A stretch of 63,890 bases of DNA, filler included, from an uncultured Methanosarcinales archaeon (GCA_964434475.1; 7 parts of 7 records of this genome joined end to end with filler, not necessarily neighbours in it), one strand, 5' to 3'. Positions 7,681 through 63,890 are shown, numbered from the whole stretch's first letter. The notes: generated by a model not told the origin, from the sequence alone. Numbers and translations are program-made.

Positions 7681-7727
7681 GTGTGTCCTCCATTCTAATA
7701 GTTAGTCCCTGAAAAAATTGAACTTAA
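7681..7727 (-). repeat. cassette left arm of the decayed array
   Basis: Reverse complement of 7708-7727 is TTAAGTTCAATTTTTTCAGG, identical to 49020-49039; similarity continues to ..TTAGAAT..GG.CACAC. Confidence 0.75.
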
Positions 7728-7869
7728 GAACGTTAATATTTTCTGTTGATAATTGGATTTTTTTCATGATAAACATATTATAATATGATTTTAAAAATCT
7801 ATTGGTCGTTTTACTAATATATTTTCAAAAGTATTAAATATTTATTTTGTTAATCTGCTTAAATAAGAC

Positions 7870-8289
7870 ATGAATAAAATGGCAAAATTTTGTAATAATT
7901 GTAAAAAAAAGATTACTGAAAAACAGTGGAAAGAACTTGAACCTATTTTTGGAAGAGGTTTATGTAATGTTTGTAGAGATGAAGCTGCAAAGAAGGTTAC
8001 AAATCCTGCAAGGAATTTATTTGAAGCTTTTAAAAAAGAAGGTTTTAAAGTTTATTTGGAGAAATTTGATAAACATAAACATATTGATATTGTATTAATT
8101 GAACATAAAATAAATATTGAAGTTGATGGCAAGTTACATATTAATGATAGCGTATCTGCATTAAAAGATTTGGAGAGGTCTTTATATTCTATTAAAGCAG
8201 GATGGTTTACAATTCACATTCCAAATAAGATAGCAACTTACCATGCAGAAAAAGCAGTTGCATTAATAAAAAACATATTATTAAAGTAG
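7870..8289 (+). CDS. DUF559/Vsr-like PD-(D/E)xK endonuclease with an N-terminal Zn ribbon
   Basis: CNNC..CNVC; HIDIV..INIEVDGKLH..D.ER...GW..IHI. Confidence 0.8.
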   Translation: MNKMAKFCNNCKKKITEKQWKELEPIFGRGLCNVCRDEAAKKVTNPARNLFEAFKKEGFKVYLEKFDKHKHIDIVLIEHKINIEVDGKLHINDSVSALKDLERSLYSIKAGWFTIHIPNKIATYHAEKAVALIKNILLK

Positions 8290-8408
8290 TTAATTTATTA
8301 GCAAAAATTTTGTTTAGTATTTCTTATGAAAAACGTAGTTTCTATTTTATTTATTCTTAGTTAAACGAAGGCCCAGTGGTTAGAGATTTTTTTGTTTAGG
8401 CAGTAAGA

Positions 8409-8434
8409 AATTTCGTTTAACATCGGGATCCTTG
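8409..8434 (-). repeat. attC-like junction motif CAAGGATCCCGATG|TTAAACGAAATT
   Basis: 8418-8434 is the reverse complement of 17 bp identical to 41507-41523. Confidence 0.75.
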
Positions 8435-10491: not shown

Positions 10492-10545
10492 GAATGTGCA
10501 ATTAATCTAAAAAGCTAAGCTAAACAGCAATTATGCAAAGTTCTC
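10492..10545. mobile_element. IS-like element end, type B (TIR GAGAACTTTGCATAATT)
   Basis: 10495-10545 is the exact reverse complement of 20546-20596. Confidence 0.8.
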
Positions 10546-20372: not shown

Positions 20373-20545
20373 GGGTTCATCCGGAAAAGAATAAATATGT
20401 ATACTGAATACTAAATTGCGAGGTGTTCAGCCATGCAAAATATACTCAGTATACAAGAAAATAAGTTACATAAGGATATTATTAAACTTTGTCATTTAAT
20501 GGAGCTTCCATTAAACTATAATCACAAAGGTCCTAAGTTTTTTAA
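20373..20545 (+). mobile_element. IS-like element type C: left end and 5' fragment of a probable transposase, interrupted by IS type B
   Basis: TIR GGGTTCATCCGGAA 20373-20386 (inverted copy 30927-30940); RBS GAGGTG and ATG 20433, MQNILSIQENKLHKDIIKLCHLMELPLNYNHKGPK. Confidence 0.7.
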
Positions 20546-20596
20546 GAGAACTTTGCATAATTGCTGTTTAGCTTAGCTTTTTAGATTAATTGCACA
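20546..20596. mobile_element. IS-like element end, type B
   Basis: Reverse complement of 10495-10545. Confidence 0.8.
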
Positions 20597-40372: not shown

Positions 40373-40423
40373 CAATATTTAGAGGTTTAGCCAAGGCTAG
40401 AGTTTAAATCTGCACAACTCCAG
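40373..40423. mobile_element. IS-like element end, type A
   Basis: 51 bp reverse complement of 63839-63889. Confidence 0.8.
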
Positions 40424-40450
40424 TATAGTTACTACTCATAAGTTAATATC

Positions 40451-40578
40451 TATAACGACGCCCTCCCTTAAAAAAAGCTCGCCAACAAAAACTCCTTCGC
40501 CACTTCGTTGCTCGGGCACGTTGCACTCTCGGGCTACGCCCTCGGCGGATTTAACAGGGCCCGATGTTATATTCAATT
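40451..40578 (+). repeat. attC-like junction J1
   Basis: TATAAC-GAC-GCCCT-CCC-TTAAA ... TTTAA-C-AGGGC-CCGAT-GTTATA hairpin. Confidence 0.7.
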
Positions 40579-40664
40579 TTTTGGGCAAAATAGTGGATTG
40601 GGCAAGAAGTCATACTTCCTCTATAGTAGAAACATATTTAAAACAATCAGCTTTCTTCTTAATT

Positions 40665-41393
40665 ATGCAACATTATGAAAGAATGGATCCGCAAGATAAA
40701 GATATACTTTCAATTACTAGACTAGGACATTTTGAAAGATATAAGCTTGCAACCAAATTGATTACACCCAATGCAGTTGTGCTCGATACAGCATGTGGTT
40801 GTGGATATGGAACAGAAATGCTTAGTAGAAAAGTTGCCCATGCAATCGGAATTGATAGGGATACTGATACTATATCATTATGCAAAGAAAGGTACAAAAA
40901 TAATGGAACCATTGATTTTCTTGTCGCTAATGTTGGAGAAATTCCGTTTGATGATTCTTACTTTGATTCTGTTGTAGGTATGGAAATGATTGAGCATATT
41001 GAACATCCAGAAAGGTTTGTTTCTGAAGCCTATCGTGTTTTGAATCAAAATGGTTCCCTTTTAATTTCAACACCCTATGGAGATAATACTCTTCTTTCAA
41101 ATGGAAAACCCTTTAGTCAATATCATATAAAAGAATATACTCAAAAAGAAATGGAAGAGATGTTACAAGATTTTGGATTTGATGTCATTCAGACTTACTG
41201 CCAGTATATCCTTCTTGGAGTACTTATGAAGCTAACAAATAATAGGGTTGAACCTATTAGCAATGTAAAAGCCGGAGGAACTCAATCACTAATGGAGAGA
41301 TTACCTTTCTTTGCTGAAATTTTTTCAAGACACTATCCGTTCTTGAAATCCACATCTAAAAACATGTTTTATCATGTTGTAAAGAGAACTTGA
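40665..41393 (+). CDS. class I SAM-dependent methyltransferase (cassette 1)
   Basis: H.ERY, VLDTACGCGYG, FD.VV..E.IEH, G.L.ISTP, YHIKEY. Confidence 0.92.
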   Translation: MQHYERMDPQDKDILSITRLGHFERYKLATKLITPNAVVLDTACGCGYGTEMLSRKVAHAIGIDRDTDTISLCKERYKNNGTIDFLVANVGEIPFDDSYFDSVVGMEMIEHIEHPERFVSEAYRVLNQNGSLLISTPYGDNTLLSNGKPFSQYHIKEYTQKEMEEMLQDFGFDVIQTYCQYILLGVLMKLTNNRVEPISNVKAGGTQSLMERLPFFAEIFSRHYPFLKSTSKNMFYHVVKRT

Positions 41394-41466
41394 CTTCTTG
41401 CCCCTAATTATTTTTACTTTATGGAACTCCGTTCTCAATATAATTTTGCCCAAAAAAACTTTTCGG

Positions 41467-41532
41467 TCGAAATCCATCGGAACTTCGTAACAGACGGAGA
41501 GCATAACAAGGATCCCGATGTTAGTTTCAATT
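41467..41532 (+). repeat. attC-like junction J2
   Basis: TCGAAATCC..AACTTCGTAAC..TAACAAGGATCCCGATGTTAGTTTCAATT. Confidence 0.7.
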
Positions 41533-41631
41533 TGGATTTTGGCTAATAGTCTAATAGGGCGGGAAGAAAACCGAAAGGTTTATATAGATATTCTTACTTT
41601 TCTTACTTATAAGAATATAAAGGTGAACAAT

Positions 41632-41880
41632 ATGCCATTAGTTGAAATTAAAAGTGCAACAATAACTGAAAAAGGACAGATTGCTATTCCAAAAGATATT
41701 AGAGAAGCAGAAGGATTTAAAAAAGGAACTAAAATTGCTATTTTAGCTTTTGAAGATCATGTTGAATTAAGATCTATGAAACAAATAAATGAAAAAATGG
41801 CTACTGCAGTAGCAAGCGAAAAAGTTTTAGCTAAAGATTGGAATAGCAAAGAGGATGATGAAGCATGGAAGAATTTGTAA
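41632..41880 (+). CDS. AbrB/MazE-family antitoxin (cassette 2)
   Basis: TITEKGQIAIPKDIRE..G...G; C-terminal LAKDWNSKEDDEAWKNL. Confidence 0.9.
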   Translation: MPLVEIKSATITEKGQIAIPKDIREAEGFKKGTKIAILAFEDHVELRSMKQINEKMATAVASEKVLAKDWNSKEDDEAWKNL

Positions 41881-42197
41881 AAGGAGATATAGTTGTTTTA
41901 CCTTTTCCATTTTCAGATTTAAGTAAATCAAAAAAGAGACCTGCTTTAATTGTCTCAAATTTACAAGGAGATGATGTAATACTTTCTCAAATTACAAGTG
42001 AAGCAAGAATAGATGATTATTCTATTACTCTTATTAGTGATGATTTTAAACAAGGAAATTTAAATCTAACTAGTATAATCAGACCAAATCGTTTATTTAC
42101 AGCTGAAAAATCTATAATTTTATATAAAGCAGGGTCTCTTAAAGAATCTAAAATTAAAGAAGTTGAAAAAGAATTAATTAAGATATTTACAAAATAG
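41865..42197 (+). CDS. MazF/PemK-family toxin (cassette 2)
   Basis: KGDIVVLPFPFSDL..SKKRPALIVS...ITS. Confidence 0.93.
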   Translation: MEEFVKGDIVVLPFPFSDLSKSKKRPALIVSNLQGDDVILSQITSEARIDDYSITLISDDFKQGNLNLTSIIRPNRLFTAEKSIILYKAGSLKESKIKEVEKELIKIFTK

Positions 42198-42240
42198 TTT
42201 TCTTCCCGCCCTTAATTCTTTTACTTAATGTACCGCTGAC

Positions 42241-42342
42241 GCTCTTTTAATAAAACGCCCTCTTTCTCGACTCTGCGGACTCAGGTTTCCAGAACTTCGT
42301 AACTGGGAACGAAACTAACAGGGCCCGATGTTATCTGTAATT
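42241..42342 (+). repeat. attC-like junction J3
   Basis: GCCCT/AGGGC pairing; AACTTCGTAAC 42293; TAACAGGGCCCGATGTTAT 42316-42334 identical to 40552-40570. Confidence 0.7.
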
Positions 42343-42389
42343 ACTTAATAAAGAAAACAAATATAAATCAAATAAAACCCCTAACTAAT

Positions 42390-43025
42390 ATGACTGAATG
42401 GAATGAAATTTATTCAAACGGAGCAATCCATAATACTCCTTCAAAAGAATTAACTTCAATAATTGAAATTTTAAGAGAAAACAATTTAGTTCATACCTTA
42501 GATGCAGGTTGTGGAACAGGAAGACATTCTCAATATCTAGCAGAACAAGGTTTTGTCTCTCATGGAATTGACATATCTCCAAAGGCCATTGAAGAAGCAA
42601 AAAATAATTCTCAAGGTTTAGATATTGATTATAAAATTGGCAAATTAATTAATTTACCATACCAAAATAATTCAATGGATTTCATTATTGCAAATCAATC
42701 ATTACAATATGCTTCTAATGAAGATGTGAAAAAATCAGTATCTGAATTAGATAGAGTTTTAAAACCTAAGAAACCAATTTTAATAAGAGTTTCTTCAGAT
42801 AAACATATTTTTAATGGAGCTAAATCCGAAGAAATATATGGATTTTCACACATCGGCTTTTCTATTAAAAAAGGTCTTCCAGTACATTTTTTTTCAGAAA
42901 GCGAATTAAGAAAATATTTTGAAGGATATAGAATAAAAAGATTAGAACACATTTCTCATAAAGTAGATCATGATAAAATTTCAGTTCCATTATCTGAATG
43001 GGTTTTGTTTGCATATAAAAAATGA
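42390..43025 (+). CDS. class I SAM-dependent methyltransferase (cassette 3)
   Basis: LDAGCGTGRH, GIDIS, LPY....D, RVLKP, HFFS..EL. Confidence 0.92.
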   Translation: MTEWNEIYSNGAIHNTPSKELTSIIEILRENNLVHTLDAGCGTGRHSQYLAEQGFVSHGIDISPKAIEEAKNNSQGLDIDYKIGKLINLPYQNNSMDFIIANQSLQYASNEDVKKSVSELDRVLKPKKPILIRVSSDKHIFNGAKSEEIYGFSHIGFSIKKGLPVHFFSESELRKYFEGYRIKRLEHISHKVDHDKISVPLSEWVLFAYKK

Positions 43026-43043
43026 GTTTTCTTTTTTAAGTAA

Positions 43044-43175
43044 CTTCTCCGTTCCTCACTTCGTTGCGGTACTCGACCACGCTGCGCTCTCGCTTCGTTC
43101 GGGACGTTTAACATTGTCTATGCGGTTTATTTCATTACACCCAAATTTCTGAAAACTTTAACTGATGTTGAGGGG
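43044..43175 (+). repeat. degenerate attC-like junction J4
   Basis: CACTTCGTTGC shared with J1; TTTAACAT...TAACTGATGTTGA. Confidence 0.5.
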
Positions 43176-43225
43176 ATTTTTCTTATATCTAAAATCAATA
43201 AAACATAGAAATAAAGAAAAAAAAT

Positions 43226-44251
43226 TTATGGTCTTCCTTCAGGTGTCCCTGATGATGCGCCAGTTATATTTGCTCTTGCTTCGCCTGCTTCTTCTCTGAC
43301 TTCTGCCTCGCTTTCTTCAGCTTCTGGTTCAAGTTCTTCAGCATCCGCTTCTTCTCTACCAGGAACATCAGCAGGTCTCCCTCTAGCTTCATCGGGAATG
43401 GGCAATCCTCTCTCTTCCAAAGCATTAACAGCAGAGTCTCTTCCCATCTGGGATTGTTCTATTGCTCTTTGAATACTGGATTTCGCTTGCTCAGGAACTT
43501 TTTCCAGAACATCTTCCAGAACAGTTATGTGCAATGATGTTGCTTTAGCAACTAATTCATTTACCTTTGAAGGGTCTTTGCCAACCTGTTGCGCAATAGC
43601 AGAAATTTCCTCACCAAATCTTGCATATTTCTCATATTCTTCTGCTGCTTCAGTAGCTTCTTCTTCATCTCCTGCATCCGATGCTTGCTTTGCTTTGTTT
43701 GCTCTGCTTTCTGCAACTCCCATCGCGACCTCAGCAGCTTTTTCAGGATTTTCTCTTGCTAATGCCTTCAAAGCTTCTTGGTTGCCTCGTATTGACCTTT
43801 CCCTTGCAGCAGCAATTTTTTCCCTTGCCTGCTCAGGCACTCTTTCCTGCACTTCATCAAGAACGCTTATATGCTGAGAAGTGGCTGTTGAAACAAGCTC
43901 TGCTAATTTTTCTTTATCTTGCGCTTCTTTTGCTAAAGTTGCAATTTCATTCGCTTCATTTACTTTATTTTCATATTCTTGTGATATATCATCTACAAAT
44001 TCAGGCTTTCCTTTAGCAGCCATTGCCTCTGCTTCAGCTAATCTTTTTTCAGTAAGCCCCAATGCACGCTCTGCTTTTGCTGTTTCTCCGAAAGTAAAAG
44101 CATTCCCAACAGATTCAAATGCTTTTTTTATTCCATAAAATGCGCTGTCTGGCAGAGTTCCAGGATCTGGTAATTCAGCTTGCGCATAAACTAGATTAGA
44201 CAATAAGAAAATCATCAAAAATGACAGGATTATTTTTTTCATTCTTTTCAC
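43226..44251 (-). CDS. secreted helical DUF5667-like protein (cassette 4, reverse orientation)
   Basis: PGTLPDS.FY..K...E; KRL.EA; repeated H..VL..V.E.VPEQA. Confidence 0.8.
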   Translation of the reverse strand: MKRMKKIILSFLMIFLLSNLVYAQAELPDPGTLPDSAFYGIKKAFESVGNAFTFGETAKAERALGLTEKRLAEAEAMAAKGKPEFVDDISQEYENKVNEANEIATLAKEAQDKEKLAELVSTATSQHISVLDEVQERVPEQAREKIAAARERSIRGNQEALKALARENPEKAAEVAMGVAESRANKAKQASDAGDEEEATEAAEEYEKYARFGEEISAIAQQVGKDPSKVNELVAKATSLHITVLEDVLEKVPEQAKSSIQRAIEQSQMGRDSAVNALEERGLPIPDEARGRPADVPGREEADAEELEPEAEESEAEVREEAGEARANITGASSGTPEGRP

Positions 44252-44338
44252 CTCTTTATACTATATATAATAATATTGATAAAGTTCTTTATAAAAATTT
44301 CTGTTTTGAAAATAAGCCCACCACTAACTTTACTCTGC

Positions 44339-44938
44339 TTACGCAGAATTTATCGTTTCAAAAATTTTACAAGCTTCCTCAATATTTTTGTCTTCTATGC
44401 TTATAACTGGGAATGGATAGTTTTTTAGTCTATCTTTAACCCTCATGATGCTTTTCTTTCTCGCATCAGTTAGTTTATTATAGACCTCAAGAAATTTGTC
44501 TTCATTAAGAACGGTATGAATAGATATATTTCTTTCATTGTTCTCGGAATCTACATTAAACTTATGAGTATCAAGATCAAAACAAATTTTTGAGTAATCA
44601 AACCCTCTTATTTCAAGACCCCTATAAACTGCATATAATGATGTTAATCTTTGTTGTCCATCAAGAATAAAATGAGTATAATATCTCATATTTCCTTTTT
44701 CAATCTTTAACTCTGGAATGTCTTTGTAATAATGAGCATAATCTTCTGGGGGTAGCCAAAGAAAAAAACTTCCTATTGGAAATTCTTTATACATACTGTC
44801 CAAAAGTTCAATAACTTTACTTTTTTCCCAAACAAATTCTCTTTGAAATCTTGGAATTTTCCATTCTCCCTTTTTTATTGAAGAGACTACTTCGGGTAAT
44901 GTTACTCCGGGATTAATTTTGATTGTTTTTTCTGCCAT
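44339..44938 (-). pseudogene. DUF262 (GmrSD N-terminal) protein, apparently C-terminally truncated
   Basis: IPRFQREFVW, PIGSFFLW, LDGQQRLT, IFETINS followed by an immediate stop inside the junction hairpin. Confidence 0.75.
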
Positions 44939-44958
44939 GATTATTTTATAACCTCATA

Positions 44959-45204
44959 TCAAGCAATAATCGGTTTATAATGTTTCCCTACCTTAAACTT
45001 AATTTTTGAAACATTCTCTTTTGATAAACTTCCTCCAACATTTACAATTTTTATTTTGAGACCACCTTCTCCTTCTTTAGTATTAATTATTGCTAATTCA
45101 AACTCAATCTCGCCTTTTAGTTTATATCCCTCTTTCAGACCTTTCTCAATTCCTTCAATTGTAGATTTTACATAATCTCCTAATTCTGCACTGTCAATTT
45201 CCAT
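44959..45204 (-). CDS. Trypco2-like small protein
   Basis: EL.DYV..T...I..G......IEFELA.......GGLKI..V..G.......SKIKF.V. Confidence 0.65.
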   Translation of the reverse strand: MEIDSAELGDYVKSTIEGIEKGLKEGYKLKGEIEFELAIINTKEGEGGLKIKIVNVGGSLSKENVSKIKFKVGKHYKPIIA

Positions 45205-45205
45205 T

Positions 45206-46582
45206 TTATTTCCTATCCTCATTAAGCACGTAATACGCTCCTCTATACGAGCCTACTTTTTTGATGTATTTAAATTTTAATAATTCATTTATGTCAGCAA
45301 TCGCTGTTCCAAAAGAGGTATTATTTAGTTCTTCATACTTTTTTGTCTTTATTGACTTGTGTTTTTTCAAAAATTCAATACATTTCTTTTGTCGTTCGTT
45401 TAAATCTGAATATTCTTCAATTGGCTTCTGTTTTCCTTTTTCATTGAATAAAACTATCCTGAAAAATCTCTCATAAATACTAAATTCCGGATCTTTTAAT
45501 CCATGGTCACGCATGGCGTTAATCATACGTGGCACGCCCGAACCTAATCCTTCCACATAACCATAATCTCGTAACAAGCGGTAAATTATTGGATTTCTTC
45601 TAACTGACAATGTTCCAAATAATTCCTTTGGCAGACCAGATGGCAGAGACCCTGGGCTTGTTACTTCAATTCTATTACTAAAAAGATAAATTTGGATGGA
45701 ATCTTTGCTAAAATAATCTCTGTGAGCAACCGCATTAACAATCGCTTCTCTAATAACCTCAAGAGGATATTCAAATTTTTCTTGCCTTTTTGGTTTGTCT
45801 GTTATTTGTATACTTTTGGAGAGATTCTTTTTGACAAATGAGAGAGATTTTTCAATTGAACTTACAGGATCAGATTGAATTAATTGATGAGAAATAATCT
45901 TTACTGGCTCTGTTCCATCAAACTGAGCAAGTTTAATCTCAATTTGTGGAGAAAAATCTTCTGGTTCTTTAGCAAAAAATAATGCAGTAGCATTTTTGAT
46001 TTTCAAACTGCCATTTTTCATAGCTAATTTTGAACTCAAAAGAAAATTTTCTACTGAATTTTGTTTTAGGAAATTTTCTTGATTACGAATTTTCAGATAC
46101 TCATTGATCTTCTCAACATCTAAATCATCAAGTGTGGCATCGCTGGAAATCTCATCAAAACAGAGAATTTGTTTGCTTCTTAGAAAATCTACTAATTGGT
46201 TGCCTTCAAATTTTTTGAGAGTGCTCCCGACCTTAACATAAATAGCCCCTTGGAATGTGTGAAAAGTGCTGTCAATTGCTTTTTGAATAACAACAGCAAT
46301 CACTTTCTTCCCCTCAATAGTATGAAATTGGATGTCTGGAACGAGGGGAGGAGAAACAGCTTGTGCGGATGCTGAGATTTTTTGCTGTAATCTATCAACA
46401 TCTTCTCTCACGCCGATTATAGTCTTCTTTGCATTTACTCCTACAAGAATCATACCGCCTTGAGTATTAGCAAAGCCACTCATCAGCTTTGAGAAATCTT
46501 GCGAACTATGGAAAGATTGCTTTAACTCTACTTCCTGTGTTTCTCCGCTTTCAATTACCTCTAAAAGTTGGTCTGTTTCCAT
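45206..46582 (-). CDS. AlbA_2/Schlafen domain + HATPase_c_4 + wHTH protein
   Basis: GE.Q.VE.K, FANT.GG.I.VGV, YP..V.REAIVNAVAHRDY, SPG.LP, RN..I, E..GSG. Confidence 0.92.
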   Translation of the reverse strand: METDQLLEVIESGETQEVELKQSFHSSQDFSKLMSGFANTQGGMILVGVNAKKTIIGVREDVDRLQQKISASAQAVSPPLVPDIQFHTIEGKKVIAVVIQKAIDSTFHTFQGAIYVKVGSTLKKFEGNQLVDFLRSKQILCFDEISSDATLDDLDVEKINEYLKIRNQENFLKQNSVENFLLSSKLAMKNGSLKIKNATALFFAKEPEDFSPQIEIKLAQFDGTEPVKIISHQLIQSDPVSSIEKSLSFVKKNLSKSIQITDKPKRQEKFEYPLEVIREAIVNAVAHRDYFSKDSIQIYLFSNRIEVTSPGSLPSGLPKELFGTLSVRRNPIIYRLLRDYGYVEGLGSGVPRMINAMRDHGLKDPEFSIYERFFRIVLFNEKGKQKPIEEYSDLNERQKKCIEFLKKHKSIKTKKYEELNNTSFGTAIADINELLKFKYIKKVGSYRGAYYVLNEDRK

Positions 46583-46584
46583 TT

Positions 46585-46702
46585 CTATCAGATACTATTA
46601 ATAATATTTGATAGTAAGTTGATAGTTATTTATAAAGCTTTCTCTTCTGTAAACACAAAAACTATCAAAAAAGATTGATACTAATCGATAATAAACTGAT
46701 AA
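46585..46702. promoter_or_regulatory. candidate operator array of TGATA/TATCA units around the AlbA-gene promoter
   Basis: CTATCA, TTGATAGT x2, ACTATCAA, TTGATACT, TCGATAAT, CTGATAAT, several about 10-11 bp apart. Confidence 0.45.
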
Positions 46703-46882
46703 TAAAAAATAGTGTTTTCTCGCCCCTCTCTTCTTGTTCTTTATGGCTCACTTTGTTCGTTTTTATCGGAACTCCCATTTGACGAAAAGAACTTCCCTCA
46801 GTACTTGTTCTATATTTGTCTCATCTGCTTATTTGAAGGAACTTTGTAAGCAAAAATATTCACGTTAATTTTATATTCTAAG

Positions 46883-47383
46883 CTATTTCTTGCCATTATC
46901 TAATAAACCTCTAAATTTTTCCCTCATATTTTCAGCATATTCGCCAGCAATATTACTAATAATAACCTTGATTTTTAGTACAAAATCTTCTGCATCAGCA
47001 AGCAATTCTTGTGTTGGTTCTTTCGTCAAGTCATCTTTTTCAGTAGTCACGTAATACTGCTTGTCAATTCTTTCTTCTTTTGCATTAGAAATTATCTTGA
47101 ATAATTCTGCTTCATCAAATAATAGTTTTAATAATAGGATTGAACCTGAATGATTCTCTGATTTTATTCCCACTCTAAACAGGAATGCGATCAATGAATT
47201 ATACATTGCATAATAGGACATACCGACAGAATTTTCGTAAAGATCATTCTTAAACAACAATCCTGCTGAAGTCAAGCAATTCTTGGACTTTTCAAGATAG
47301 GAATCGCATATCTCACTAGATGGCTCAACTAATTCTATTTTTTCTTCTTTTCTTAGCTTACTCAAAAACTTGTTTTTTTTCAT
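46883..47383 (-). CDS. HEPN domain protein
   Basis: YL.KS...L.SA, SYYAMY, GIKSENH, R...QYY. Confidence 0.9.
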   Translation of the reverse strand: MKKNKFLSKLRKEEKIELVEPSSEICDSYLEKSKNCLTSAGLLFKNDLYENSVGMSYYAMYNSLIAFLFRVGIKSENHSGSILLLKLLFDEAELFKIISNAKEERIDKQYYVTTEKDDLTKEPTQELLADAEDFVLKIKVIISNIAGEYAENMREKFRGLLDNGKK

Positions 47384-47912
47384 AGAATTTCTCCGCCCCC
47401 CTTATTATTATGTGATTTTTCACGATTTCCTTGATTAAATTTGATTTGGTATCAAAAGAACCAATCTTGACTTTTATCCTTGAATTAACAGCTTCAACTT
47501 CTTTCTTGACATTCCTATTTTTAGTTTCAATATAAATATCAATATCACTACTTTTTTTTGCTATGCCTTTGGCGTAACTGCCAAAAAGAATTATGAGGTC
47601 TTCATCTGTTTTTTTTAATATCTCTTCAAATATGATACTTAATTCTGGGTATTTCCTTAACAACTTTGTCAGCTTGTGAGACTCAGCTTTTAGCACATAA
47701 TTTTTAGCAACGAAACTTTTCTTCAAAAAAAATATCTTGTTCTTTCCTTCCTTTCTAAAATCAATAACATTTTCCTTGACCAAGTTGTTTAGTTTTCTAG
47801 ATATCGTTGTGTGGGACTCATCCAAGCTTTTAGCGATCCCTCGTACATGAGCTTCTTTATGGAGTAACAATTCTATGATATCTAATTCCAAGTTGCCCCT
47901 CTTTTGAACCAT
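47358..47912 (-). CDS. HTH-fused minimal nucleotidyltransferase (MNT)
   Basis: HVRGIAK.L...H.TI; ILFGSYAKG....SDIDIYI. Confidence 0.9.
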   Translation of the reverse strand: MVQKRGNLELDIIELLLHKEAHVRGIAKSLDESHTTISRKLNNLVKENVIDFRKEGKNKIFFLKKSFVAKNYVLKAESHKLTKLLRKYPELSIIFEEILKKTDEDLIILFGSYAKGIAKKSSDIDIYIETKNRNVKKEVEAVNSRIKVKIGSFDTKSNLIKEIVKNHIIIRGAEKFYEKKQVFE

Positions 47913-48020
47913 ATGTACCAAAAATGCACCATAATTATATAAATGTTGTGTTTCCCTACAGAGTAACAAGTATGAAAAACTCCCCTTTGCTACTTGTTCT
48001 TGATGTGTCGCTTTGCTCTT

Positions 48021-48167
48021 TTGAATTAACGAAATCCCCCATTCTACGCACATATACACTCGCTACGCTCGAAATTTATCTGAAGTTAAATACAACTCTG
48101 CGGACGCAGTTTGACCCCACGTTGTAGGGTCAAAGAGTTTAATAGGACCCCGATGTTAAGTTCAATT
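48021..48167 (+). repeat. attC-like junction J5
   Basis: TTGAATTAAC (48021) pairs with GTTAAGTTCAA (48155); CGAAATCC/GGACCCCG; internal hairpins CTGCGGACGCAG and TTTGACCC..GGGTCAAA. Confidence 0.72.
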
Positions 48168-48280
48168 AAATTTAAGTTTATAGATAATAAAAAAGGGAAT
48201 TCTCTCTAAAATGAATAGGCAAGAATTTAATCGAAAGGTTTATATATAAGTAATTATATATTGACTATAGGTGATATATA

Positions 48281-48505
48281 ATGACTGCAACCACAATACA
48301 ATTAGATAAAGAATTAGTAAATTCTCTTAAAGATGTAAGAGAATATCCTAGACAAACCTATAATGAATTAATCAGCAGAATGGTCGAAGTTTTTAAGAAT
48401 ATTAAAAAAAAGAATCAATACGATGAATTTCTTCATAAGATCCAGCAAGTTAAAATGAAAGAATTATGGGACAATGAAGAAGATGAGGCTTGGAAAAATG
48501 CTTAA
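48281..48505 (+). CDS. RHH-type antitoxin
   Basis: TTIQL...L...LK....YPRQTYNELI; C-terminal MKELWDNEEDEAWKNA. Confidence 0.8.
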   Translation: MTATTIQLDKELVNSLKDVREYPRQTYNELISRMVEVFKNIKKKNQYDEFLHKIQQVKMKELWDNEEDEAWKNA

Positions 48506-48812
48506 ACCCGGAGATGTTGTTTTAACAAGAATCCAATTTGCTGATACTTTTGAAATAAAAACAAGGCCTGCTGTAATCTTATTTGAAGAATTTGATAACT
48601 TTATTGTTGCAGGTGTAACAAGCAACAAGTCTATGAAAGGTATTTCTTTAACTAAAAAAGAAGGCGCGATTAAAGATAGTGTTATCAAATTAAATTATAT
48701 TTTTACAATATCTAAGATTATGATCGATAAGGCGTTATTCTCTTTGACAAAAGAAAAGAAAAAGATTGTTTTCGATACACTTGTTGAGAAATTAGAAGTA
48801 TTAAAAGATTAA
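48498..48812 (+). CDS. MazF/PemK-family toxin
   Basis: KPGDVVL..IQF.DT.E.KTRPAVIL....AGVTSN. Confidence 0.88.
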   Translation: MLKPGDVVLTRIQFADTFEIKTRPAVILFEEFDNFIVAGVTSNKSMKGISLTKKEGAIKDSVIKLNYIFTISKIMIDKALFSLTKEKKKIVFDTLVEKLEVLKD

Positions 48813-48979
48813 ATTCTTGCCCTTTCTTCTTTTATTTTTCTTACTTAATTTATCTAATTTTTTCAATAATTATTCATCAATTTCTAAAAAATACATTTTA
48901 GAGATTCAATCTTTTTCTAAGATTTTTAGTAGTTCCTACATGAATTTTTCTCTGCTTCATAATATGTTTAGCTTTTTTG

Positions 48980-49064
48980 ATATATTCGGGTCTCAATTCA
49001 GGCTCTAAAAGACCCTATGTTAAGTTCAATTTTTTCAGGAGCTATTAGTTAGAATAGGGCACAC
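48980..49064 (+). repeat. attC-like junction J6 plus cassette left arm
   Basis: GGGTCT/AGACCC hairpin; GACCCTATG|TTAAGTTCAATTTTTTCAGG..AATAGGGC. Confidence 0.65.
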
Positions 49065-49607
49065 TCAACTTAGATATGATAATCCCGCATAAATACACAG
49101 CAGAAATAATCAGCACAATTATAGGACCTGTTGCAAAATTCAAATAATACGAAATAAACAATCCTGAAATGCTTGCAAACAAAGTGATTAAAGAAGAAGT
49201 TAGCATTATTTTCTTGACTGTCTTATGAAATAGTTGAGCAGTAGCAGCTGGAATTGATAATATAGCAATCATAAGAACAATTCCAACAACCCTTATGGTA
49301 GCCACTATTGTCAATGCTACCAATACAAAAAGTATCATATTAACTAAAGTGACAGGCATATTTCTTGTTTCGGCATATTCTTCATCAAATGTAACCGCCA
49401 AAAATGAATTATACATCAAATAAACTATTGCTAGTATAATTATATCTAAGAAAAGAATTATATAAAGATCAAATTTTGATACCAGTAAAATATTCCCGAA
49501 TAGGTAAGTAAACAAATCTGTTGCATAGCCAGGAGTTAAAAAAATAAAGACCAAACCAATAGCCATTCCTGTTGCCCATAAAAAACTAAGCAGAGTATCG
49601 ATTCTAT
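49045..49607 (-). CDS. Zn/Mn ABC transporter permease (ZnuB-like), 5' part missing at the contig end
   Basis: YLFGNIL, TFDEEYA, IRVVGIVL..A.L.IPAATA, G.IIVL. Confidence 0.9.
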
Positions 49608-63838: not shown

Positions 63839-63890
63839 CTGGAGTTGTGCAGATTTAAACTCTAGCCTTGGCTAAACCTCTAAATATTGC
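63839..63890. mobile_element. IS-like element end, type A
   Basis: CTGGAGTTGTGCAGATTT...; reverse complement of 40373-40423. Confidence 0.8.

Follow-up and report, generated by a model that had tools for sequence, protein, structure and literature searches.

An integron-like gene cassette array in a DPANN archaeon, with related sites linked to XerA-family recombinases in other archaea

Background

In the pdif modules of Acinetobacter plasmids and in the IMEX of CTX phage, Xer-type sites bound small modules without a recombinase of their own, which frequently carry toxin-antitoxin or resistance genes; pdif sites are plain, 28 bp long and alternate in orientation. The array described here likewise consists of small gene modules with Xer-type sites and no recombinase of their own. 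Its sites, however, are all direct repeats (every array site in the window lies on the + strand), are structured, and are tied to a dedicated recombinase paralog and an attI-like entry site. In integrons, attC sites measure 57–141 nt, have extrahelical bases and an unpaired spacer between the R and L boxes, and are recognized by the attC covariance model (HattCI/IntegronFinder); these boxes are usually spaced differently from the 1 and 3 nt seen here. The archaeal XerA acts alone on its site, a single dif of two binding sites and a 6-nt spacer, in the parts of the published account considered here (PMC3646895).

For the comparison with integrons, we included sedentary chromosomal integrons, CALINs, and the archaeal integrons of Ghaly et al. 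2022, within the portion of that source considered here (PMC9668308). Integrons and the present family share a tyrosine recombinase gene divergent from a one-orientation array with an attI-like site alongside, hairpin-forming sites at cassette ends with inverted AAC/GTT cores and G|TT exchange, an end box that complements the first bases of its own cassette, cargo rich in toxin-antitoxin and defence genes, and sites that are more alike within lineages. The same source reports a few attC sites in metagenome-assembled genomes (MAGs) of Woesearchaeales and Pacearchaeales. In contrast to integrons, the recombinase here is XerA-like. The site is divided close to its tip, which leaves about 45–70 nt of it, with a private inverted repeat, at the cassette 5' end. 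Each cassette brings promoters of its own, can hold more than one gene and may point in either direction. Spacings of 1 and 3 nt separate R'' from the stem that follows, and R'' is preceded on its 5' side by further conserved hairpin modules. We found no description of a XerA-type cassette array of this design in the published literature.

Junctions and cassettes in the window

The window, by which we mean the whole 63,890-nucleotide stretch analyzed, consists of 8 contigs joined by N spacers. One of these (40373–49607), from a tiny (DPANN) archaeon, is filled by the array. An IS-like repeat cuts the array's left end: 40373–40424 recurs inverted at 63839–63890, where the last contig ends, a 20-nt piece is found again at 35–54, and in run X1, the probable source run, a contig over 40373–40423 has a depth of 186 compared with 10 elsewhere (about 18-fold). 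The inverted copy and the high depth make plausible the IS end that the first-pass annotation had placed at the contig start. The array sites, together with a second, smaller site set on contig 1 (7701–8434, − strand), are as follows.

40373–40425, no strand assigned: IS-like repeat end, which starts the contig and truncates the cassette 5' of J1
40547–40578, + strand: J1, core GGATTTAAC-A-GGGCCC-GATG|TTATATTCAATT, G at 40566
41499–41532, + strand: J2, core GAGCATAAC-AA-GGATCC-CGATG|TTAGTTTCAATT, G at 41520
42311–42342, + strand: J3, core GAAACTAAC-A-GGGCCC-GATG|TTATCTGTAATT, G at 42330
43104–43175, + strand: J4, decayed (site at 43160–43175), AACTGATG|TTGAGGGG, G at 43167; R'' ACGTTTAAC at 43104–43112, followed by an apical-domain remnant (CCCAAATT..)
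48135–48167, + strand: J5, core GAGTTTAAT-A-GGACCC-CGATG|TTAAGTTCAATT, G at 48155
49003–49064, + strand: J6, decayed (site at 49003–49031), CTCTAAAAGACCCTATG|TTAAGTTCAATT, G at 49019; includes a cassette-start-like tail, the last of the array
8409–8434, − strand: K1 on contig 1, ..GGATCCCGATG|TTAAACGAAATT
7701–7734, − strand: K2 tail on contig 1

The sites share the motif ..TAAC-A-GGGCCC-GATG|TTAnnTTCAATT, which recurs in a single orientation between unrelated genes. With at most one mismatch, CCCGATGTTA matched six times in the window compared with 1.17 expected, a count reached in 0 of 100 shuffles; five of the matches lie on the + strand of the array contig and one on the − strand of contig 1 (8418). 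The looser pattern ATGTTRNNTNYAATT was not enriched by itself in the window (8 compared with 7.2 expected), and its five exact matches are identical with the five sites. A profile built from nine elements of other genomes matched J1 (E 2e-8), J5 (2e-8), J3 (1.8e-7) and J2 (1.9e-6). J1 is a hairpin-less "type A" site. The six motifs quoted in the first-pass annotation were all recovered at the positions given there, on the + strand; the submotifs AACTTCGTAAC, ACTCTGCGGAC and CACTTCGTTGC each occur twice; the spacing between TTA and AATT, given there as 4 nt, is 5 nt. The tail of J6 resembles the K2 tail and the recombinase-adjacent first-cassette start of a related locus (L146).

Between the sites lie five cassettes, with genes predicted by Pfam matches (Pfam and PADLOC for cassette 4).

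40567–41520, + strand: cassette 1, SAM methyltransferase gene (40665–41393)
41521–42330, + strand: cassette 2, MazE-like (41632–41880) and PemK/MazF-like (41865–42197) genes
42331–43167, + strand: cassette 3, SAM methyltransferase gene (42390–43025)
43168–48155, + strand: cassette 4, 5 kb, every gene on the − strand: DUF5667 (43226–44251), GmrSD_N (44339–44938), Trypco2-like (44959–45222), Schlafen AlbA_2/HATPase_c_4 (45206–46582), HEPN (46883–47383) and HTH-nucleotidyltransferase (47358–48059)
48156–49019, + strand: cassette 5, DUF7557 antitoxin-like (48281–48505) and PemK-like (48474–48812) genes
49045–49566, − strand: ABC-3 permease gene, its 3' end overlapped by the J6 tail

The cargo consists of toxin-antitoxin, methyltransferase and defence-type genes. 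Canonical integron cassettes are mostly promoterless, share one orientation and are expressed from Pc; here, an identical 15-nt BRE/TATA-like box, CGAAAGGTTTATATA, is found in cassettes 2 (41572–41586) and 5 (48232–48246), and the six genes of cassette 4 lie on the opposite strand.

Complementarity of cassette ends

We found that the end of a cassette, in the five bases that precede TAAC, tends to complement its own start, located at the previous junction. Across 29 junction pairs, which include one duplicate (L066 repeats L011) and one pair of the G004:C4 array from a coding false hit that scores 1/5, the R'' box matched the complement of TTAnnnnn at the previous junction at a mean of 3.90 of 5 positions, and perfectly in 16 pairs. 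Against its own junction the mean was 2.38, and the null was 2.20 (maximum 2.90 in 1000 draws). Hairpin-bearing pairs passed more often (13 of 17) than hairpin-less pairs (3 of 12), and most pairs of G004:C4 failed. In the window, the R'' of J3, GAAACTAAC, complements GTTAGTTTC at J2 without a mismatch (5/5, compared with 1/5 at its own junction), and the R'' of J2 matches the start of cassette 1 at 3/5. The division into cassette units is thus borne out in relatives and in one of the two testable window pairs. J3–J4, J4–J5 and J5–J6 fell outside the scoring, the pattern being missed or the spacing beyond the limit, and by eye their R'' boxes mismatch the starts of their own cassettes. Inverted AAC/GTT cores, G|TT exchange and an R'' that matches its own cassette start are features of canonical integrons that recur in this family. 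Hairpin partners had earlier been assigned to a far-upstream TATAAC..GCCCT at J1 and to TTGAATTAAC at J5, but the main pairing lies elsewhere: R'' directly adjoins GGGCCC and in fact pairs with the beginning of its own cassette, at the previous junction.

Private inverted repeats gave a similar pattern. With the coding false hit excluded, complementarity between a cassette's own ends was at least 12 in 12 of 21 cassettes, compared with 3 of 100 mismatched pairs, and own ends formed the most stable fold in four of the five window cassettes. In cassette 1 (repeats 40600–40609/41394–41403 and 40577–40590/41444–41457), the own ends fold at −29.7 kcal/mol, compared with −11 to −19 with the ends of other cassettes; in cassette 2 (repeats 41557–41570/42198–42211, 14/14), they fold at −29.9, compared with −10 to −14.5 when mismatched. 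Cassettes 3 (42341–42358/43026–43043, 17/18) and 5 (48218–48229/48810–48821, 12/12) also have private repeats. In cassette 4, which contains a junction relic at 46715–46878, the end repeats (43170–43182/47974–47985) match at 11/12 with one indel, and own-end score and fold were no better than in mismatched pairs.

In relatives, the site includes an apical hairpin of 64–175 nt, and its 12-bp stem covaries (position 4: AT 13, CG 9, GC 4; position 10: CG 7, GC 9, AT 10), and own pairing scored 7.43, shuffled partners 6.21 (maximum 6.65 in 500). On inspection, only A and GAT separate TAAC and GTTA from GGGCCC in the window sites, leaving no loop; these sites are hairpin-less, with GGGCCC or GGATCC only, or decayed. 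Since the sites are of this kind and the left end is cut by the IS-like repeat, the window copy may be weakly mobile or largely frozen.

Related arrays and their recombinases

Many MAGs of Woesearchaeota, Pacearchaeota and Nanoarchaeota carry sites of this family. A scan of a genome collection gave 94 loci, many at contig ends, and 50 showed conserved flanking modules on inspection. Of the 80 loci (among the 94) with listed titles, 31 bore the names Woesearchaeota, Pacearchaeota, Nanoarchaeota, Nanoarchaeia, Nanobdellati or "archaeon". Within one order, the strict motif was present in 22 of 200 genomes, with 37 hits compared with 5 for the reversed control. Across species, the same upstream element can be followed by different downstream starts, and the same start can be preceded by different upstream elements. 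The module 5' of J4 (43033–43113) is 83–85% identical to array junctions in G004. Junction modules are rich in C(UUCG)G-type loops, which would suit an RNA role equally.

In two relatives (G001 and G002), the arrays and a XerA-like gene diverge from each other, and four others (G011, G061, G079 and G101) have a site and a divergent recombinase 0.7–3.9 kb apart. An attI-like site, CGCTTAATAnrTG|TTA (fuller form yrCGYTTAATAnrTG|TTAnnnnnAAT), lies 55–198 nt upstream in divergent orientation in 19 of 33 recombinase loci. Control searches for G|TTAnnnnnAAT gave one hit on the same strand and seven downstream on both strands. The remaining 14 loci had no attI-like hit, and four of these had less than 160 nt of flank. 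The recombinase tree is split (support 99/93) into a clade of 26, 18 of them with the site, and a clade of 7, six without it; the array-adjacent recombinase of G002 (L105) falls on a long branch inside the latter. In G001 and G002, as read from the loci, the R'' rule also holds for the first cassettes beside the attI-like sites. The canonical arrangement of attI beside an integrase with a divergent array was found in relatives only.

All recombinases of the relatives had their highest scores with NF040815, the model for archaeal XerA (210–240 bits, cut-off 220). They matched the XerA structure 4A8E at full length in one stretch (E 2e-48), and IntI4 (2A3V) in two stretches. Whole proteins scored 180–210 bits on the integrase model TIGR02249 (cut-off 265), and no match reached the IntI cut-off in the five relatives' genomes searched. 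The TIGR02249 matches are split and skip model positions of about 180–235, which we interpret as absence of the IntI insert; an IntI with the additional domain was found neither in the window nor in the relatives searched.

Discussion

The array is integron-like in design, yet it is not a canonical integron, because the array-linked recombinases of relatives are XerA-family proteins without the IntI insert. From the earlier integron reading, the single orientation, G|TTA exchange, inverted AAC/GTT cores and the toxin-antitoxin, methyltransferase and defence cargo hold. An IntI integron that lacks intI only through the contig break is not supported, given the XerA-family paralog beside relatives' arrays. 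The caveats raised with that reading (own promoters, both orientations, poor RYYYAAC) were correct and prove to be traits of the family.

The similarity to XerA, the nearest protein relatives among known recombinases (P. abyssi XerA, PDB 4A8E), could instead reflect housekeeping Xer/dif recombination, with the recombinase-side site being the chromosomal dif, acted on by the normal XerA, and IMEX-like elements piled up beside it. Best scores on the XerA model and structures would fit, as would the single Xer-like gene in G001, G004 and G005, all incomplete assemblies. We consider this unlikely. G002 and G003 have a second Xer-like gene without such a site, from which the site-linked genes cluster apart, and most genes linked to arrays belong to a clade of their own. 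The sites are also long, hairpin-forming and multi-copy, with inverted 9-nt boxes 10 nt apart or separated by 64–175 nt with a hairpin, unlike the single dif in the parts of PMC3646895 considered here, where 6 nt separate two binding sites.

Dispersed MITE- or REP-like repeats between genes, with order changing only through homologous recombination between copies, are distinctly unlikely. The element is multi-copy, palindrome-rich and breaks assemblies, with many copies at contig ends, and mixed 5' and 3' apical-stem halves, as in L035, point to recombination within elements. However, the inverted repeats pair across genes and not within one intergenic element, as terminal repeats of MITEs or IS would (adjacent-junction complementarity 8.5, background 8.1), and neither the match of R'' to the previous junction nor a fixed exchange point beside a dedicated recombinase and an attI-like half-site is expected of MITEs.

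It is very unlikely that the element acts chiefly as RNA, whether as a terminator, a small RNA or a structured 3' UTR, and takes no part in DNA recombination. Elements do begin directly after stop codons and have several small hairpins, UUCG/UACG-type loops and covarying stems, and the junction modules may double as terminators. However, no Rfam family matches the element, the family is linked to recombinases and attI-like sites, and the cassette end complements the start of that cassette, some 1 kb upstream, a pairing impossible within one mRNA since that start lies upstream of the promoter.

A fragment of a canonical IntI integron (CALIN) with its integrase elsewhere in the genome is highly improbable: the array layout, cores, G|TT exchange, toxin-antitoxin-rich cargo and the attC sites of Woesearchaeales and Pacearchaeales MAGs in the portion of Ghaly et al. 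2022 considered here (PMC9668308) would suit it, but the IntI results in relatives, the cassettes' own promoters and both orientations, the box spacing of 1 and 3 nt, and the failure to find the window motif in the supplement text of that paper considered here argue against it.

We consider it probable that the contig carries part of an integron-like cassette array, without a recombinase, and that such arrays are common in DPANN archaea of the Woesearchaeota type. Against this reading, the window has neither a tyrosine recombinase (tblastn) nor an attI-like site (site scan), and no recombination product was observed. A cassette would run from TTAnnTTCAATT up to the next ..GATG, and would begin with a private left repeat, followed by a promoter of its own and one or more genes. 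The right repeat that matches the left one would come directly after the stop codon, and beyond it small hairpins over 60–250 nt and finally an R'' box (nnnnnTAAC) adjoining GGGCCC. In a circular cassette, an intermediate that we infer, the joined ends would form one long hairpin-forming site in which R'' pairs with G|TTAnnnnn; folding of this site in vivo is likewise predicted. The exchange point is at or adjoining G|TTA. Exchange there, near the tip of the site, would split the site, and one half would therefore be kept at each cassette end. Relatives' arrays start at the attI-like site upstream of the divergent XerA-family paralog, the putative catalyst of cassette excision and insertion.

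On balance, we favor the broader proposal that Woesearchaeota/Pacearchaeota DPANN archaea have their own gene-capture platform, derived from XerA independently of bacterial IntI. It would comprise a dedicated paralog, an attI-like entry and cassettes with a large hairpin-forming site cut near its tip, so that every cassette has a matching pair of private ends, a promoter of its own and cargo of the defence type. If this is true, the integron principle would have been invented a second time, convergently.

Contents and ends of the cassette array

The window comprises eight contigs separated by N spacers, and the array fills one of them entirely (40373-49607). Other contigs carry a class I CCA-adding enzyme and an archaeal-type ProRS among archaeal-type genes, consistent with an archaeon. 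With at most one mismatch, the motif CCCGATGTTA occurs six times in the window against 1.17 expected, a count reached in none of 100 shuffles. Five copies lie on the plus strand of the array contig and the sixth on the minus strand of contig 1. All six motifs quoted in the first-pass annotation, which had proposed an integron-like array with attC-like junctions, were found where it had placed them. Between the sites (junctions J1 to J6) are accessory genes without mutual relation (Pfam, PADLOC), and the array terminus abuts the 3' end of an ABC-3 permease gene.

Features of the array and of a second junction set
Window cassettes: two SAM methyltransferases (Pfam)
Window cassettes: two PemK/MazF-type toxin-antitoxin pairs (Pfam)
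5-kb block, opposite strand: DUF5667, GmrSD_N-only protein, Schlafen/AlbA_2-HATPase_c_4 protein, HEPN/nucleotidyltransferase pair (Pfam, PADLOC)
40600-40609/41394-41403: private inverted repeats
41557-41570/42198-42211: private inverted repeats
42341-42358/43026-43043: private inverted repeats
48218-48229/48810-48821: private inverted repeats
7701-8434, minus strand, contig 1: second small junction set (8409-8434 and 7701-7734)

The earlier suggestion of an IS end at the contig start is plausible, since the first 52 nt are a repeat present too at two further contig ends and are spanned by a contig of ~18-fold higher depth in the probable source run. This repeat, with the common end AAATCTGCACAACTCCAGT, lies at 40373-40425, 63839-63890 (inverted) and 35-54; in run X1, contig depth was ~186 over it versus ~10 elsewhere. 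The likely source is a multi-copy IS at which the assembly breaks, with this repeat as its terminal inverted repeat. Contig 2 has inverted ~50-nt copies at its start and end (10492-10545 and 20545-20596). An assembly fold-back could explain these copies, as could a bounded element or a terminal inverted repeat.

The second junction set (K1 and K2) sits downstream of a small wHTH gene. The K1 start allele, TTAAACGAAATT, is also the first-cassette start beside the recombinase of a relative's genome, G001, and the K2 tail is similar to 49030-49064.

Both toxin-antitoxin cassettes are headed by an identical 15-nt BRE/TATA-like box, CGAAAGGTTTATATA (41572-41586 and 48232-48246), just inside the left private repeat. 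The promoter and MazE/PemK unit of cassette 2 (41572-42205) has counterparts with 68-78% identity in six further genomes from the order. In these six genomes, junction elements of the window type were absent from the flanks of the homologues, and none offered a case of one cassette set between differing junctions. Cassette 2 appears to be a capture of an entire toxin-antitoxin unit that circulates independently. Within the 5-kb cassette, 46715-46878 holds a junction relic (TTTTCTCGCCCCTCTC, resembling a right repeat, followed by modules and CACG|TTAATTTTATATTC), and two cassettes may have fused to form the block.

Site anatomy and distribution

Locally, the site motif is nearly palindromic (nnnnnTAAC-A-GGGCCC-GAT-G|TTAnnnnn). 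Thus the box at the cassette end (R'', nnnnnTAAC) abuts GGGCCC directly, and the AAC box does not lie ~100 nt upstream as first described. The far-upstream hairpin partners of that description were also set aside, as single-site MFE folds were ambiguous, and were replaced by cassette-unit pairing. Its submotifs do recur among the conserved words 5' of R'' (e.g., CGTTGCACT), a region with additional small hairpins, whose loops are in many cases of the UUCG/UACG type.

Relatives carry two forms of the site, the hairpin-less type A, as in the window, and type B, in which 64-175 nt are inserted between GGGC and GCCC, with complementary strands at both ends (GGGCTTAAAGGG...CCCTTAAGCCC, GGATTTAGAG...CTCTAAATCC and GGAATTTAACG...CGTTAAATTCC, for example). 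Compensatory changes in the 12-bp apical stem were seen across the 33 non-redundant rows in which 9 or more of the 14 positions pair; two of these rows (loci L031 and L044) come from chance matches in bacteria. At position 4, AT occurred in 13 rows, CG in 9 and GC in 4; position 7 was TA in 11 and AT in 19; and position 10 was CG in 7, GC in 9 and AT in 10. Among 98 parsed rows, pairing was 7.43 with own partners versus 6.21 with shuffled ones (maximum 6.65 in 500 shuffles). At the level of sequence, the compensatory changes and own-partner pairing together point to a folded strand or cruciform.

Exact matching of CCCGATGTTANNTTCAATT against a collection with one genome for each species (596 Gb) gave 94 loci; by an arithmetic estimate, a pattern with 17 fixed bases should occur ~70 times by chance in that much sequence. 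Around 44 of the loci are coding-sequence matches in assorted bacteria, and the remaining 50 have, by inspection, conserved non-coding flanks in common with the window. Of 80 title-listed loci, 31 have titles naming Woesearchaeota, Pacearchaeota, Nanoarchaeota, Nanoarchaeia, Nanobdellati or "archaeon". A contig end is within tens of bases of many loci, as expected for a multi-copy repeat. Within the order containing the relative G004, CCGATGTTANNTNNAATT was present in 22 of 200 genomes (37 matches versus 5 for the reversed control). An nhmmer profile of nine elements, all from other genomes, recovered J1, J5, J3 and J2 (E 2e-8 to 2e-6) and no other match in the window. The junctions matched no Rfam family, either across the whole window at gathering thresholds or on the contig at E up to 1.

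Recombinases and attI-like sites in relatives

For the relatives' tyrosine recombinases (266-295 aa), the top-scoring model was that of archaeal XerA, NF040815 (210-240 bits), and the top-scoring structure that of P. abyssi XerA, matched in one stretch (E 2e-48), versus two stretches for IntI4. One rival explanation to be set beside this affinity is a housekeeping Xer/dif system with elements piled up. A second is a CALIN of the IntI type; in five relatives' genomes, no protein reached the integron-integrase cut-off, and the recombinases matched TIGR02249 in two pieces, skipping the IntI-specific insert.

At their heads, the relatives' arrays resemble integrons. In G002, the minus-strand sites at 303085, 302172, 299753 and 298842 lead away from an Xer-like gene at 304287-305111 (plus strand), and in G001, sites at 372069, 379815, 380734 and 390091 (plus strand) lead away from a recombinase gene at 370945-371763 (minus strand). 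A strict site and a divergent Xer-like gene share a contig, 0.7-3.9 kb apart, in G011, G061, G079 and G101, four of the 13 motif-bearing genomes common to the site and recombinase searches. In the other nine, the two were on different contigs or there was no recombinase match. Xer-like genes often lie at contig ends; 97 of 121 genomes had a match, the only tally in which the unpublished G117 is counted.

An attI-like half-site, a candidate entry site, accompanies many of these genes. G|TTAnnnnnAA[AT], reading away from the gene, was found 55-198 nt from the start codon in 19 of 33 distinct recombinase loci, compared with one match when the opposite strand of these segments was read and seven in 300 nt downstream (both strands). 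It is preceded by a conserved yrCGYTTAATAnrTG, not CCCGAT. Four of the 14 loci with no match have less than 160 nt of flank. The tree of the 33 recombinases has two clades (99/93 support). The clade of 26 includes 18 with the site, four with short flank and four without, and the clade of seven includes six without, among them the second Xer-like gene of each of G002 and G003. The G002 recombinase next to the array also falls in this smaller clade, on a long branch. The 64 kb of the window contained no recombinase by tblastn and no attI-like site by fuzzy search.

Evidence for cassettes

If cassettes move as units at G|TT, the end box should, as is the hallmark of integrons, be complementary to the first bases of its own cassette, which lie one junction earlier. 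Across 29 pairs of successive junctions, taken from the window and all loci, R'' and the previous junction agreed on average at 3.90 of the five variable bases, and perfectly in 16 pairs; random partners averaged 2.20 (maximum 2.90 in 1000 draws). The pairs include one duplicate (L066 = L011) and one G004C4 pair from a coding false hit, scored 1/5, which was kept here and excluded from the private-repeat test. Pairing of R'' with its own junction was at chance level (2.38 against the null of 2.20). Many alleles join in the complementarity (e.g., AGACATAAC, GCATTTAAC, GAGTTTAAC and GCAATTAAC). Within the window, the match was 5/5 for J2 to J3 (GAAACTAAC versus GTTAGTTTC) and 3/5 for J1 to J2. 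The test was passed by 13 of 17 hairpin-bearing sites versus 3 of 12 hairpin-less ones, and most pairs in the array on contig G004:C4 failed it. First cassettes at the attI-like sites of G001 and G002 kept the rule (TCGTTTAAC and ACGTTTAAC versus G|TTAAACG.).

Elements and starts are shuffled across species. One upstream element precedes varied downstream starts (L062, L077, L093, L094), and one start follows differing elements (L077/L086, L047/L093, L040/L092). Since, in addition, the variable dinucleotide after TTA goes mostly with the downstream side, exchange is placed within the invariant CCCGATG|TTA. Two contig-end loci of one MAG, L099 (G004:C1) and L117 (G004:C24), have a common cassette start, TTAAATACAATAAAATT, after an attI-like site at one and a cassette junction at the other; these could be alternative array orders in the population. 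Joints skipping or circularising a cassette were absent from three runs, which bears neither way on excision; the sole run containing the array contig is probably its source, in contig form. Two joints that seemed to go back derive from another contig with common junction modules.

Each small cassette has its own inverted repeats flanking its genes, and MITE-like repeats are a third rival explanation to consider here. Own-end complementarity was at least 12 in 12 of 21 cassettes versus 3 of 100 mismatched pairs, and ends adjoining across a junction scored 8.5 against a background of 8.1. When joined in silico, own ends gave the most stable fold in four of five window cassettes (for example, -29.9 versus -10 to -14.5 kcal/mol), the exception being the 5-kb cassette. 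Stability was similar for the top- and bottom-strand folds of joined cassette ends. The last rival is an element acting purely at the RNA level. Judged from sequence, the tests of R'' complementarity, shuffling and private repeats together indicate that the array units are real cassettes.

Proposed mechanism and significance

Integrons are the textbook bacterial gene-capture system. The array works like an integron array, as the first-pass annotation proposed, but it failed the defining tests of integron membership. In contrast to canonical integrons, relatives of the window array have no IntI-type enzyme, window-type cassettes bear their own promoters and occur in both orientations, and the site geometry differs. 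We consider excision and insertion by a dedicated XerA paralog, site-specific at G|TTA on folded sites, to be the likeliest reading, in which we infer catalysis, in vivo folding and circular intermediates. A circular cassette would present one long hairpin-forming site, with the private stem at its base and the R''/R' stem near its top. Because the exchange point would lie a few bases from the tip, insertion would leave a half-site at either cassette end. Such XerA-linked cassettes would account for the window's repeated junctions, the private inverted repeats round each gene block and the mosaic cargo. The window's own copy may be a frozen remnant, given the lack of a recombinase in 64 kb, the hairpin-less or decayed sites and the IS-like break at its left.

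Archaeal integrons reported to date are IntI-based, with only six integrases found (Ghaly et al. 2022, PMC9668308). Full-text literature searches returned only these integrons and no XerA-linked cassette arrays. The window motif was not found in the supplement text searched for that paper, whose PDF supplement may contain attC sequences relevant to overlap with this family.

If a widespread XerA-paralog array is confirmed, the design of recombinase, entry site and folded cassette sites would have arisen more than once, and it would offer a compact recombinase/site pair directly testable in vitro. It would also help explain why assemblies of DPANN archaea break at such loci and how these tiny-genome archaea exchange defence and toxin-antitoxin genes.
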